Sequence record: MW822011
Direction: 5' to 3' (one strand)
Origin: Shigella phage TB004
Length of the DNA stretch: 64,000 nt
The position numbers were made by a program, and so were the translations under genes. A model generated the notes under the pieces. The model did no database searches. It saw nothing but the letters and a program-made list of their open reading frames with translations, and was not told the DNA's origin. Below, one piece after another: positions 13,550 through 62,479 of this stretch (position 1 is the first letter of the stretch; each line of letters begins with the position of its first letter).

Positions 13550-13585
13550 AAGTTATTTACACGGGGTTTTAGTTGTGATACTATT
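13550..13585 (+). promoter_or_regulatory. T4-type early promoter (TTTACA, 17 nt, TACTAT with TGTGA extension)
   Basis: sigma70-like -35/-10 with T4 early consensus GTTTAC...TGnTAtaAT upstream of ipI. Confidence 0.5.
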
Positions 13586-13620
13586 ACCCTATCAAAACAA
13601 ATGAGTGATTGGAGAATAAA

Positions 13621-13893
13621 ATGAAAACATTTAAAGAATTTATCAATGAAGCTACTTTTAACGAAAAAGTAAAAATTAGTAAAGCTGTCAAGACTTTGAT
13701 TGCTGACATCAATTACCTATATGATATTGATTTAACTGACTATGTAACAGTTGGTAACAAACGTAACTTTTTCGTGTTTGACATCTCTGAACTTGACCAG
13801 AATCAAATTAACAACATTGAGCGTTTTGCTAATGATAAGGGTCTTCGTCATGAGTCAGCGGGTTATAAAAAATACGCAATTTATTTAAAATGA
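13621..13893 (+). CDS. ipI: internal protein I-like, N-terminal capsid targeting sequence MKTFKEFINEA
   Basis: ATG with GGAG RBS; N-terminus matches the MKTYQEFIAE-type targeting sequence of T4 internal proteins; position after 57B. Confidence 0.6.
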   Translation: MKTFKEFINEATFNEKVKISKAVKTLIADINYLYDIDLTDYVTVGNKRNFFVFDISELDQNQINNIERFANDKGLRHESAGYKKYAIYLK

Positions 13894-13925
13894 GTTTACT
13901 TTTAAATAGGGTTGTGGTACTATTA
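13893..13925 (+). promoter_or_regulatory. T4-type early promoter
   Basis: GTTTAC ... TACTAT cassette. Confidence 0.45.
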
Positions 13926-13953
13926 TCTCATCAAAATTAATTAGGAAAATAAA

Positions 13954-14262
13954 ATGAAAACATTTAAAGAATTTATCAATGAAGCGGCTGCGCCAAAGAC
14001 ATTCGTTATTAATACTCAGGCGAGTCTTGATGATGAATACGCGGAGGCAATTCTGAAGTCACTTGCTAAGAACGGTGTTGAAGTAATTGCTTCGGACTTT
14101 AAGAAAGGGGCTTCCGAGATGTTTATTTCTATAACTAAAGGATCTAAAGCTAAGATTAAATCATCATTCGGAGTTGCTCGTACCGATCAAATCGACAATC
14201 ATGACTTTAAACAAACTGGTGCTAAACGGCAGAATACAATTGCATCACGCGGAATAAAATAG
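13954..14262 (+). CDS. second internal-protein-like gene with identical targeting sequence (MKTFKEFINEAAAP...) and different cargo
   Basis: 102-aa ORF with the same leader and first 11 codons as ipI. Confidence 0.55.
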   Translation: MKTFKEFINEAAAPKTFVINTQASLDDEYAEAILKSLAKNGVEVIASDFKKGASEMFISITKGSKAKIKSSFGVARTDQIDNHDFKQTGAKRQNTIASRGIK

Positions 14263-14272
14263 TTTATAAAAA

Positions 14273-14306
14273 CAGTTTACTTTTAGATAGGGTAGTGATA
14301 CTATTA
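14273..14306 (+). promoter_or_regulatory. T4-type early promoter, near-identical to the 13550 copy
   Basis: GTTTAC...GTGATACTATTACCCTATCAA. Confidence 0.5.
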
Positions 14307-28130: not shown

Positions 28131-28316
28131 ATGAGTCTAAGCATTAGTCAGAAAAGTAGATTATTTGAGCTTATTCATGAACTTCTAGATGAGCATGCAG
28201 AAGCAAACACCTTTTATGATGAATACGGCCCGCTATCTCCCGAACAACAGGAAGAATTTGCTGACCGGTTTGATAAGAAAGAAAACGAATTAATAGCTTA
28301 TGTGAATACGCTTTAA
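28131..28316 (+). CDS. hypothetical small acidic protein (61 aa)
   Basis: ORF. Confidence 0.35.
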   Translation: MSLSISQKSRLFELIHELLDEHAEANTFYDEYGPLSPEQQEEFADRFDKKENELIAYVNTL

Positions 28317-28325
28317 GAAGGTGAT

Positions 28326-28907
28326 ATGGCTAGTTTAATTTTTACTTATGCAGCAATGAATGCTGGAAAATCTGCTTCTCTTTTGACTGCTGCACATAAT
28401 TATAAAGAACGCGGAATGAGTGTATTAGTTCTTAAGCCTGCTATTGATACTCGCGATTCTGTTTGTGAAGTCGTTTCTCGCATTGGAATTAAACAGGAAG
28501 CGAATATTATTACGGATGATATGGATATTTTTGAGTTCTATAAATGGGCTGAAGCACAAAAAGATATTCATTGTGTATTTGTAGATGAAGCCCAGTTTTT
28601 AAAAACTGAACAAGTGCATCAATTAAGTCGAATTGTTGATACATATAATGTTCCTGTTATGGCTTATGGTCTAAGGACTGATTTCGCTGGAAAATTATTT
28701 GAAGGTTCTAAAGAACTTTTGGCGATTGCAGATAAACTTATTGAACTAAAGGCAGTTTGTCATTGCGGTAAAAAAGCGATTATGACGGCTCGATTAATGG
28801 AAGATGGAACACCAGTTAAAGAAGGTAATCAAATCTGTATTGGTGATGAAATTTATGTTTCTTTGTGCAGAAAACATTGGAATGAATTAACTAAAAAGCT
28901 CGGTTAG
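28326..28907 (+). CDS. tk: thymidine kinase
   Basis: 193 aa; P-loop AAMNAGKS; recognisable Tk. Confidence 0.9.
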   Translation: MASLIFTYAAMNAGKSASLLTAAHNYKERGMSVLVLKPAIDTRDSVCEVVSRIGIKQEANIITDDMDIFEFYKWAEAQKDIHCVFVDEAQFLKTEQVHQLSRIVDTYNVPVMAYGLRTDFAGKLFEGSKELLAIADKLIELKAVCHCGKKAIMTARLMEDGTPVKEGNQICIGDEIYVSLCRKHWNELTKKLG

Positions 28908-28949: not shown

Positions 28950-29162
28950 ATGCTACAATTAACTGAAAAGCAACTTCGCAATCTTACTGTTCTTCAATTA
29001 GATGAAATTCGTAGGGAAGTTGGAAATATCATTTCAGCTTTGCGTCGAGAAGTATCACTCAACCAATCTCCGGCAGACTATACTAGATTGCGAAATTTTG
29101 AAAAATACCTTGATAAAGTTAAGGCCGTGCATCGGCATAAAGTAAATACAGGACAAAAATGA
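28950..29162 (+). CDS. hypothetical protein (70 aa, rI.1 position)
   Basis: ORF. Confidence 0.45.
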
Positions 29163-29174
29163 TAGGAGGCCTTT

Positions 29175-29468
29175 ATGGACTTAAAAGCAACGGCATTATT
29201 CGCCATGCTAGGATTGTCATTTGTTTTATCTCCATCGATTGAAGCGAATGTCGATCCTCATTTTGATAAATTTATGGAATCTGGTATTAGGCACGTTTAT
29301 ACACTTTTTGAAAATAAAAGCGTAGAATCGTCTGAACAATTCTATAGTTTTATGAGAACGACCTATAAAAATGACCCGTGCTCTTCTGATTTTGAATGTA
29401 TAGAGCGAGGCGCGGAGATGGCACAATCATACGCTAGAATTATGAACATTAAATTGGAGACTGAATGA
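29175..29468 (+). CDS. rI: lysis inhibition regulator rI-like (97 aa, signal-anchor)
   Basis: Size and position next to tk; N-terminal hydrophobic segment. Confidence 0.65.
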   Translation: MDLKATALFAMLGLSFVLSPSIEANVDPHFDKFMESGIRHVYTLFENKSVESSEQFYSFMRTTYKNDPCSSDFECIERGAEMAQSYARIMNIKLETE

Positions 29469-29851
29469 AATTCAGCGACTTTTCACAAAGTGGAAAACCT
29501 TCAAAGGCAGATGAATACTTAGGTTTATTAATGGCTGCACAAGCTTATTTTCATTCTGCGCATTTTGAAACTAAAAGTTATGCTAGACACAAAGCATACG
29601 ATTTTATTTTTTCCGAGTTGCCAGATTTGATTGATAAATTTGGCGAGCAATATTTGGGGTATTCTGGTAGAAAATACACACCTTCAATTCCAGATGCCAG
29701 TAAACTTCCTACCGACACAATTAAAATGATTGATCGCATATTAGACCAATCTAACAGCATTTACAAAGAAATGCCTCCAGCCATTCAAAGCACGATAGAT
29801 GATATTACTGGAATGTTTTACCAGAGTAAGTATCTTCTTTCCCTCGAATAA
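29465..29851 (+). CDS. hypothetical protein (128 aa)
   Basis: ORF. Confidence 0.45.
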   Translation: MKFSDFSQSGKPSKADEYLGLLMAAQAYFHSAHFETKSYARHKAYDFIFSELPDLIDKFGEQYLGYSGRKYTPSIPDASKLPTDTIKMIDRILDQSNSIYKEMPPAIQSTIDDITGMFYQSKYLLSLE

Positions 29852-29858
29852 CATTAGT

Positions 29859-30008
29859 CTCCTTCGGGAGTCCTTTTTTCATTTTGCCAGTTTACTTTCC
29901 AAAATGAGTATGGTATAATAAAACTATCTTATAGATCGGGAGTCCTTTTTTCATTTTGCCAGTTTACTTTCCAAAATGAGTATGGTATAATAAAACTATC
30001 TTATAGAG
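29859..30008 (+). repeat. tandem direct duplication (2 x 72 bp) of a terminator-hairpin + early-promoter cassette
   Basis: GGGAGTCCTTTTTTCATTTTGCCAGTTTACTTTCCAAAATGAGTATGGTATAATAAAACTATCTTATAG occurs twice in tandem; first copy preceded by CTCCTTCGGGAG hairpin. Confidence 0.8.
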
Positions 30009-30017
30009 GAGAACATC

Positions 30018-30206
30018 ATGAAAATTGAAGCACTTAATCAAGAAGGAAATATCTACGTTATCATTAATGGTGATTTTTTCGTCGACATGGATGAAGTTAC
30101 TAGTGAAGAACTTGTAGAACTTCTTAAGAAACGTTATGATATGTGTGATGAAGCTGCAACTCATATGGCGTGTGCAATATTCTCTCTTTCATATGTGGTG
30201 GAATAA
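30018..30206 (+). CDS. hypothetical small acidic protein (62 aa)
   Basis: ORF behind the duplicated promoter. Confidence 0.4.
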
Positions 30207-30409
30207 TGATTAGTATCGAACAAGCAGATAAAATTAAAGAATTGGTAGCTTTAATTCGCAAAGCAGACGAGGAACTTAGTGACTTTGCTTGGTTTTCGTC
30301 AGGCATTGCAAATAAAGGTGCTGAAGAACTTGAAGCTAAGGTTGATAATGCCGTAGAAGCTTTAGATATGTTTCTTGATGAAATTATCGATCATAATACG
30401 AGAGTTTAA
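30206..30409 (+). CDS. small helical protein, member of a 4-member paralog set
   Basis: [23 protein letters not shown]... Confidence 0.4.
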   Translation: MISIEQADKIKELVALIRKADEELSDFAWFSSGIANKGAEELEAKVDNAVEALDMFLDEIIDHNTRV

Positions 30410-30411
30410 GT

Positions 30412-30606
30412 ATGCTAACACGTGAACAGTTTGAAAAAATCATTAAATTAGCACGTGATGTTGAAATAGATTCATACCAATTGGCAGTTGAGCATTGTGA
30501 AGGATATTCATACGATGGTATAGAAGCGGCTAAAAAGGATTTGGATAAATCCAAAGCTAAGTTAGTTCAATATCTTGAAATGATTAGGTGGAATAATGAA
30601 AACTGA
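30412..30606 (+). CDS. small helical protein, paralog
   Basis: MLTREQFEKIIKLARDVE... Confidence 0.4.
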   Translation: MLTREQFEKIIKLARDVEIDSYQLAVEHCEGYSYDGIEAAKKDLDKSKAKLVQYLEMIRWNNEN

Positions 30607-30769
30607 AAAGCAGATGTTTTTAATGAAGCTAATTGAAGAATATGCTAATGCAGTTTCTGACTATGAGTATTCTTCTCGTGAAAGAGGTACAGCTTTCGCA
30701 AAGGAAGAAATGAAAATCATGGTTGATGCTCACACAAAGCTTCAGAATTTTATTGAAAACGTCATTTAA
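30596..30769 (+). CDS. small helical protein, paralog (57 aa, below ORF-track cutoff)
   Basis: MKTEKQMFLMKLIEEYANAV... read manually. Confidence 0.35.
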   Translation: MKTEKQMFLMKLIEEYANAVSDYEYSSRERGTAFAKEEMKIMVDAHTKLQNFIENVI

Positions 30770-30770
30770 T

Positions 30771-30802
30771 GGTTTACAAGTTGGCAAGGTTATGGTATAG
30801 TA
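30771..30802 (+). promoter_or_regulatory. T4-type early promoter
   Basis: GTTTAC ... TATGGTATAGT. Confidence 0.45.
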
Positions 30803-30933
30803 ATCTTGTCAACTGCCAAGGAGAAGAGAATGAAAATTTTGTTTGTTGTGTATGTGATGATTCAATATAATTACCCAATGTTTACTTATAATCTAGTGAA
30901 CAACATTATTGATATTATTCAAAGGAGTATGTA

Positions 30934-31119
30934 ATGACAAGTGAGCAGGCTTTTAAATTAAGAGAATTAATTGAGATGTATAGTAAAGCTGTTCATACAT
31001 CAACAGTTATTGATGAATCAGCTTTCTCTGGATATGCTAACAAGATTAAATACAAAACTCTTATGGAAGAAGCTAAAGTAAATCTTGATTCTTATATTGA
31101 AACTTTAACTGGTGAATAA
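30934..31119 (+). CDS. small helical protein, paralog
   Basis: MTSEQAFKLRELIEMYSKAV... Confidence 0.4.
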   Translation: MTSEQAFKLRELIEMYSKAVHTSTVIDESAFSGYANKIKYKTLMEEAKVNLDSYIETLTGE

Positions 31120-33924: not shown

Positions 33925-33926
33925 TA

Positions 33927-33951
33927 GGGAGCCTTCGGGCTCCCTTTTTTT
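33927..33951 (+). terminator. rho-independent terminator (GGGAGCC-TTCG-GGCTCCC + T7)
   Basis: 7-bp GC-rich stem, UUCG loop, T-run. Confidence 0.65.
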
Positions 33952-34005
33952 ATTTCTTATGGTACTATACAACTATCAACTACTGATACAGATTTGGAGA
34001 ATAAA

Positions 34006-36075: not shown

Positions 36076-36110
36076 TGGTTTACAAGACTGTTCCTCTGTG
36101 GTACTATACA
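36076..36110 (+). promoter_or_regulatory. T4-type early promoter with conserved leader GGTACTATACAACTATCAACTAC
   Basis: GTTTAC ... TGTGGTACTAT; leader shared with copies near 33958 and 62436. Confidence 0.5.
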
Positions 36111-36135
36111 ACTATCAACTACGGAGGAACAGAAA

Positions 36136-62413: not shown

Positions 62414-62447
62414 CTGTTTACATCTCTGTTCTTCCGTGGTACTATAC
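62414..62447 (+). promoter_or_regulatory. T4-type early promoter with conserved leader GGTACTATACAACTATCAACT
   Basis: GTTTAC ... CGTGGTACTAT. Confidence 0.5.
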
Positions 62448-62479
62448 AACTATCAACTGATACGGATTTGGAGAATGAA

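Follow-up and report, generated by a model that had tools for sequence, protein, structure and literature searches.

The spacer between rI.-1 and mobD.5 in the 64-kb stretch of DNA analysed here (the window) carries a 72-bp unit twice in perfect head-to-tail order, and this unit is of the type that lies between soc and mrh.2 in related phages and not of the type native to the rI.-1 locus. The PeSLs (promoter-early stem-loops) of T4-type phages are small composites of a terminator and a promoter that end in the Shine-Dalgarno (SD) sequence and start codon of the next gene (PMC2839356, PMC4122927), and we consider that the locus is probably a PeSL-type cassette that was ectopically replaced from soc-mrh.2 and tandemly duplicated.

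The window belongs to a Tequatrovirus (T4-like), its best 20-kb match being phage vB_VIPECOOM01 (96.4%), and its plus strand is the direction of early transcription. According to the annotation of T4, Shfl2 and VIPECOOM01, the genes are ordered tk, rI.1, rI, rI.-1, cassette and mobD.5 (Table 1), the stop codon of rI.-1 being placed just 5' of the cassette. Three of these genes, rI.1, rI and rI.-1, make up an operon, read both from a late promoter that lies between tk and rI.1 and from an early one 3.3 kb upstream (PMC2962797), and this operon should finish with the hairpin at 29859.

Table 1. Features of the duplicated cassette and its neighbourhood, with positions in the window
Feature	Position	Strand	Basis or remark
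DUF7438 / PHROG 653 small genes	28131-28316, 30209-30409, 30412-30606, 30596-30769, 30934-31119		
tk	28326-28907		T4-based annotation
rI.1	28950-29162		T4-based annotation
rI	29175-29468		T4-based annotation
rI.-1 (MobD.6, DUF5856)	29465-29851	+	ORF, annotated orthologues, Pfam; last gene of the rI.1-rI-rI.-1 operon
Chimeric, weakened intrinsic terminator (predicted)	29857-29879	+	fold energies
Hairpin core CTCC-TTCG-GGAG (CTCCTTCGGGAG)	29859-29870	+	12 nt identical in rI-type and soc-type cassettes
Copy 1, soc-type	29864-29935	+	3' hairpin arm, T-run, -35, extended -10, presumed start
Copy 1 promoter	-35 GTTTAC 29890-29895; extended -10 TGGTATAAT 29911-29919	+	start inferred near 29926
Copy 2, 100% identical to copy 1	29936-30007	+	lacks the 5' hairpin arm
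Copy 2 promoter	-35 29962-29967; -10 29983-29991	+	start inferred near 29998
AGAGGAGA, Shine-Dalgarno region of mobD.5	30005-30012	+	common to both cassette types; unit ends within it, at 30007
mobD.5, 62 aa, no Pfam match	30018-30206	+	first gene served by both promoters

TRF reports an array at 29864-30007 with a period of 72, 2.0 copies, 100% matches and a score of 288, the sole long-period array that it finds in the window, and a separate repeat search recovered the same two 72-nt copies as 100% identical. With up to 3 mismatches allowed, the 72-mer occurs at these 2 sites only in the 64 kb, against an expectation of 0 from shuffled sequences. The perfect 72-bp tandem duplication announced in a preliminary description of this DNA is thus confirmed, but the extent given there, 29859-30008, has to be narrowed to the repeat proper. 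Each unit spans roughly -62 to +10 relative to the presumed transcription start, from the second base of the TTCG loop to one base into AGGAGA, and comprises the 3' hairpin arm, the T-run, the -35, the extended -10 and the start site. Copy 1 leads into copy 2, and copy 2 into GGAG (30008-30011) and the mobD.5 ATG at 30018. The outer bases discontinue the repeat (T at 29863 against A at 29935, and G at 30008 against T at 29936), so that the junction between copy 1 and copy 2 has 0 bp of microhomology. As a separate observation, TCTCCT (29858-29863) and AGGAGA (30007-30012) form a 6-nt inverted repeat, the inner edges of which coincide, within one base, with the outer ends of the array. Rfam covariance models gave 0 matches at E up to 1 on both strands of 29400-30400.

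The hairpin had been described as preceding the first unit; in fact it straddles the left boundary, at 29859-29870, and the unit begins within the TTCG loop. With the left end of the unit in the loop, duplication has reached the T-run and the 3' arm but not the 5' arm, which leaves copy 2 without a stem-loop (-0.7 kcal/mol by RNA folding). Only half of the terminator is therefore duplicated, and the unit is not the terminator-plus-promoter cassette for which it had been taken: the architecture is one weak terminator followed by two identical promoters, and not two terminator-promoter cassettes. The remaining hairpin is chimeric, its 5' arm (AGTCTCC) being that of native rI.-1 and its 3' arm (GGAGTCC), followed by a T6 run, that of soc. 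The stem at copy 1 has 4 contiguous bp (4 bp plus 1) and a UUCG loop and folds at -5.7 kcal/mol, whereas both parental hairpins are stronger (T4 rI.-1, -10.8 kcal/mol; T4 soc, -15.1 kcal/mol); 11 of 200 shuffles fold as well as the copy 1 stem, and none of 200 does so for either parental hairpin. A terminator scan listed nothing at 29859, where the T6 run is present and the stem, with 4 pairs, falls below the 5-bp rho-independent criterion. Such a weakening of the rI-operon terminator predicts more read-through, which should be increased out of the rI operon in this phage.

The foreign character of the unit is apparent from comparison with both cassette types. The native rI.-1/mobD.5 spacer, as found in T4, Shfl2 and VIPECOOM01, reads CTCCTTCGGGAGAC-T6/7-CATTTTACCGGTTTACTTTCCGTTTGAGCTGTGGTACTATACAAC.ATCGGATAAAGAGGAGAACATCATG and is clearly unlike the unit of the window, which is nearly identical to the soc-mrh.2 spacer, about 41-43 kb away in the genomes of relatives. 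The unit matches the W143 soc cassette at 71 of 72 positions (one substitution), that of ECO07P1 entirely except for one T fewer in the ECO07P1 T-run, and that of T4 at 65 of 72 (7 differences). When diagnostic sites were taken from an alignment of five loci of each cassette type, all 18 sites inside the unit were soc-type and all 17 in the flanks (7 left, 10 right) were of the native rI-locus type. The left switch falls within CTCCTTCGGGAG (29859-29870), between the last native site at 29858 and the first soc-type site at 29871, and the right switch around AGAGGAGA, soc-type sites continuing up to 30006 and native ones resuming at 30016, with a shared block of about 8 nt at 30005-30012. Both ends of the unit (29864 and 30007) lie inside the two identity blocks that bound the imported tract.

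The rI-type was found at 8 of 8 extracted orthologous rI.-1 loci and in all 19 of 20 further assemblies from which the spacer was extracted, and the soc-type at the 10 Tequatrovirus soc loci recovered and at 3 more that were examined. For the soc cassette of T4, GenBank X01416 gives the putative terminator t15.02 and the early promoter P(E)14.98, and for that of ASO78A the annotation is a rho-independent terminator and a T4 early promoter. Judging from these alignments, the native rI.-1/mobD.5 cassette is replaced by a soc-mrh.2 cassette and the unit is foreign to the locus. The donor would be the soc cassette as it is known from relatives, the phage's own soc locus lying outside the 64-kb window, by expectation some 7-9 kb past its right end; exact-protein look-ups with MobD.5, RI.-1 and gp43 led to relatives of at most 97% identity. 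In at least many Tequatrovirus genomes, a soc-mrh.2 query (L002 2239-2795) matches at megablast only over ~139 bp (query positions 238-376), an island made of the soc-mrh.2 cassette and about 30 nt of mrh.2, with both flanks unmatched; to judge from these matches, the soc cassette is conserved while the genes around it vary, which is what a recombination joint would be expected to show.

A T4 early promoter close to the consensus, GTTTAC-N14-ATGGTATAAT (the motif can also be written GTTTAC...TATGGTATAAT), is present in both copies, and the two rank top in a promoter scan of the window, with 10 of 12 hexamer matches, a 17-nt spacer and a TG extended -10; transcription starts were placed about 7 nt past the -10. 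The T-run at about -50 is a probable UP-like element. Both copies fit exactly the PST/T4 PeSL consensus TTTACW-N17-TAYWAT (29891-29919 and 29963-29991), which has 13 matches in the window, all on the + strand, where 0.34 are expected; a clear upstream hairpin is seen at only a few of the 13. The earlier proposal that two promoters feed the downstream accessory block is upheld, as two complete T4-type early promoters point towards mobD.5 and the accessory genes, and the statement that promoters are doubled is correct as a count, with one in each copy. Their combined output need not double, as closely spaced identical promoters may interfere. The footprint of RNA polymerase extends from about -55 to +20; with starts 72 bp apart, two footprints would nearly abut, so occlusion or interference is possible. 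The -10 hexamer of the imported promoter is the consensus TATAAT, against TACTAT in the native one, and this better -10 together with the second promoter predicts stronger early transcription of mobD.5 and the genes behind it, which should hold in this phage.

Two further regulatory effects were considered and rejected. A second terminator in copy 2, attenuating promoter 1, is contradicted by the second T-run having no hairpin before it, and transcripts from promoter 1 should therefore not terminate there. An extra RegB site in the longer leader is unlikely, the added GGAG being followed by UCCUUUU, far from the RegB cleavage consensus GGAGRAYARAA (PMC1702504). Leaders from promoter 1 fold at -21.6 kcal/mol over 135 nt and those from promoter 2 at -3.1 over 63 nt, a comparison too soft to carry an interpretation.

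Downstream of mobD.5 are small DUF7438 genes, two T4_y05I paralogues, a membrane protein and nrdC.11 (RlaP), and the next strong terminator after this block, at 33926-33945, gives the presumed extent of the transcription unit. This is a symmetric hairpin on the + strand just past nrdC.11, AGGGAGCC-TTCG-GGCTCCCT with T-runs, of 8 bp and 6 G-C pairs. Transcription from the duplicated promoters probably comes to its real end here, and the loop is UUCG, as in the rI.-1 and soc hairpins. Small DUF7438 / PHROG 653 paralogues (tk.2, mobD.4, mobD.3 and others) occur on both sides of the rI operon and share end motifs, for example GGTGGAATAATGA at 30197 and 30587, and their number varies among relatives (loci L031-L050). 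Relatives also vary downstream of mobD.5 in their numbers of DUF7438, Y05J and Tudor genes. Three loci from gut metagenomes (L031, L041 and L043) do not have the block between the mobD.3 homologue and nrdC.11 (RlaP) (about 1895-3089 in L031), and in them a 66-71-aa DUF7438 ORF overlaps RlaP directly; the missing block bears out the hyperplastic character of what follows the cassette.

Several other sites in the window recall parts of the cassette. At 30773-30838 an early-promoter-like TTTACA-N17-TATAGT, in which TATGGTATAGTAA resembles the -10 region of the unit, is followed by AGGAGAAGAGAATGAAAATT, resembling the SD and start of mobD.5. A G+C-rich hairpin is not obvious there, and the site has the look of another, diverged member of the cassette's family within the accessory block. 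The early promoters at 36079-36121 and 62417-62460 share the native rI-type -10 and downstream module (GTGGTACTATACAACTATCAACT...), which indicates that promoter sub-modules are reused among cassettes, and TRF flags ACTATACA repeats at 33964 and 36103. Finally, 13556-14304 holds three early-promoter matches 340-380 bp apart (13556, 13895 and 14276), each followed by an SD and an ATGAAA... start, and looks like a classic array of promoter-plus-small-ORF modules.

The distribution of the arrangement was studied among relatives and in public collections. Each of the 40 top-ranked relatives has one copy, the 1101-bp region being aligned over only about 1030 bp among those listed. With a query collapsed to one copy, the best full-length match in 50,697 phage records was 92.6%, and none of these records has a soc-type cassette at rI.-1/mobD.5. 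In an evenly spaced sample of the ranking, 36 of 36 full-length Tequatrovirus records were colinear and in one piece, over 852-875 bp for the 873-bp query. A further 20 assemblies that encode an identical MobD.5 or RI.-1, from isolates and from gut or other metagenomes, have a gene-to-gene spacing of 95 nt, where the window has 166 nt; the 19 spacers measured in this set (the extraction pattern left L050 unmatched) are rI-type and 88 nt long, against 159 nt in the window.

Searches for the junctions agree with this. The duplication junction is absent from the phage collection, both by megablast with 34 nt and by blastn with 60 nt; the BLAST low-complexity filter could blunt the 34-nt megablast, and the colinearity and span checks were used alongside it. 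By exact scan it is also absent from IMG/VR, the JGI metagenomes and the GTDB genomes, and the hybrid left junction (rI.-1 flank and soc-type arm) is absent from metagenomes, IMG/VR and GTDB genomes; as a positive control, the native junction was found at 4 loci. A single-copy intermediate, with a soc-type cassette at rI.-1, was found in none of the phage records, metagenomes, IMG/VR and GTDB genomes. One native cassette in the relatives and the absence of both junctions from the collections scanned point to a private, probably recent variant. Within public data, transplant and duplication are both confined to this genome. The suggestion that the duplication is very recent agrees with this, every readable relative having one copy and the collections lacking the junction.

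These observations are best accounted for if gene conversion or an ectopic patch recombination copied the soc PeSL, of the same genome or of a co-infecting relative, into the rI.-1 PeSL. Its end points would be in the hairpin block CTCCTTCGGGAG and the SD block AGAGGAGA, the only blocks that both cassettes share. The imported segment is present twice, head to tail. The outcome would be an rI operon with a weakened chimeric terminator and two identical promoters, 72 bp apart, directed at mobD.5 and the accessory genes. An origin of the duplication by microhomology or slippage was rejected, as the junction has no shared base and the closest candidate, GGAG, misses the register by 3 nt. Without junction microhomology, and unlike documented T4 duplications, the duplication step has no established mechanism. 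T4 recombination operates on patches of <50 bp (Singer et al. 1982, as cited in PMC2839356), and two perfect copies of 72 bp would therefore be expected to gain or lose a unit with ease. The variant probably either arose not long ago, or is mixed in copy number within the stock, or owes its persistence to selection.

Transplant and duplication could also be products of a single complex break-repair, in which a double-strand break in or near the native cassette would have let both ends copy the soc donor before being joined out of register. We regard this as possible, with perhaps a quarter of the weight. Its appeal lies in the ends of the unit, 29864 and 30007, which are both inside the identity blocks, a coincidence that two independent events would not predict and that hints at one break-repair event over two unrelated ones; the internal junction without microhomology and the left boundary in the hairpin loop, where crossovers of RB49 PeSLs map (PMC2839356), fit as well. 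The scheme is, however, purely inferential, homology-free end joining is not a documented major pathway in T4, and a conversion followed by an unrelated illegitimate duplication could give the same picture. An intermediate of either the break-repair or the two-step route was found in none of the collections searched.

An error of assembly or finishing is unlikely in our opinion. There would then be one true copy, of either type, and the second would come from a mis-resolved soc repeat or an untrimmed contig join, and the perfect identity of the copies, the uniqueness of the arrangement among the relatives examined, the expected recurrence of the unit at the soc locus of the same genome (a typical source of assembly trouble) and reads of 150 nt, which hardly span a 144-bp array, would all suit such an error. 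However, the longest exact run common to rI-type and soc-type cassettes is about 12 nt, too short for k-mer assemblers to have produced the hybrid joints with the flanks, and a de Bruijn assembler needs TATAGA|TCGGGAG in its reads to emit the internal one. A naive end-to-end join of contigs with the shared repeat at their ends predicts a period of 82 nt (CTCCT, unit and GGAGA) rather than 72, the even number 72 is not a usual k-mer overlap, and the window has no N and no other long tandem repeat. These are arguments and not tests, and they suggest that the array is real.

Inheritance from an unsampled T4-like lineage with a soc-like cassette, single or double, at this locus, acquired during co-infection by ordinary homologous recombination through the flanks, is improbable. 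In its favour are the strong mosaicism of T4-type phages, the many genomes in which the soc cassette is conserved and its flanks vary, and the differences in gene content past mobD.5 among relatives. Against it, no such lineage is present in the 50,697 phage records, IMG/VR, the JGI metagenomes or the GTDB genomes, native sequence resumes within about 12 nt on each side, which marks a short patch rather than a long import, and the ectopic event would merely be shifted to an earlier ancestor. Least probable of all, to our mind, is that the ends of the unit are the footprint of a specific activity that cuts or joins PeSL stem-loops, on which Arbiol et al. 2010 speculated (PMC2839356); TCTCCT immediately precedes the left end, in the hairpin loop, and the right end falls one base into the inverted copy AGGAGA. 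If true, PeSL exchange by such an activity would be site-specific and not merely homology-driven, and this naturally formed locus would preserve both cut sites.

On the reading that we prefer, ectopic replacement from soc together with tandem duplication, the locus shows cleanly, in nature, an outcome that the PeSL model foresees and that is rarely seen directly. A cassette would have overwritten its paralogue at a distance of about 41-43 kb, with no more in common than about 12 nt at the hairpin and 8 nt at the ribosome-binding site, leaving the flanking genes untouched. Such exchanges may rewire regulation: here the terminator of rI (lysis-inhibition) would be weakened while the mobD.5 block would gain two promoters of greater predicted strength. 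Copy number in this genome is likely to be heterogeneous at the 72-bp direct repeat, and the extra soc-type copies create new homology between distant regions of the genome.

The cassette fits the known PeSLs. The order is the same, an early promoter of TTTACW-N17-TAYWAT and then an SD and start codon behind a stem-loop terminator, which in the window is reduced to the weak chimeric stem of copy 1, and so is the situation, intergenic (rI.-1/mobD.5) in a hyperplastic accessory region of a genome with several related copies. PeSLs are concentrated in hyperplastic regions and were proposed to mediate modular shuffling by recombination between copies (PMC2839356, PMC4122927), and their crossovers have been mapped in or beside the stem-loop (PMC2839356, PMC4122927), those of RB49 in the hairpin loop (PMC2839356); in the window, too, the exchange points are inside the cassette, stem-loop included, and recombination is deduced from the pattern of sequence. 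There are also differences. Published PeSLs flank ORFs that are inserted, deleted or swapped, whereas here a PeSL replaced a distant PeSL and no ORF moved; the imported PeSL is doubled with nothing between the copies, copy 2 has no stem-loop and copy 1 has no SD or start codon. Comeau et al. (PMC4122927) describe degraded multiple copies of -35 and -10, which are attributed to 'recombinational slippage', and do not mention a perfect tandem pair. The T4 soc-mrh.2 cassette (X01416) belongs to the same sequence family as the unit, which differs by sitting after rI.-1 instead of soc, by being present twice and by having a hybrid, destabilised hairpin.

Tandem duplications are known in T4 from rII, genes 16-18 and dmd-tifA (Kumagai 1993, Wu 1991, Srikant 2022 PMC9391042), and those documented arise at microhomologies of 2-10 bp (PMC9391042). 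Like them, the present array is head-to-tail, in a T4-type genome, and may raise the expression of accessory genes. They are, however, hundreds of bp to kb long and contain genes, whereas this array has a period of 72 bp and no gene, and they keep one 2-10 bp copy of the microhomology at each junction, whereas the junction of this array has none.

Tandem promoters are familiar from T7 A1-A2-A3 and rrn P1-P2, and the array is like these in having two sigma-70 promoters in series for one transcription unit. The T7 and rrn promoters differ from each other in sequence and are fixed, whereas here the promoters are identical, come from a private duplication and have footprints that nearly abut. The locus is thus no new kind of element or mechanism: it is a PeSL-type cassette, in a known style of T4 genome plasticity.
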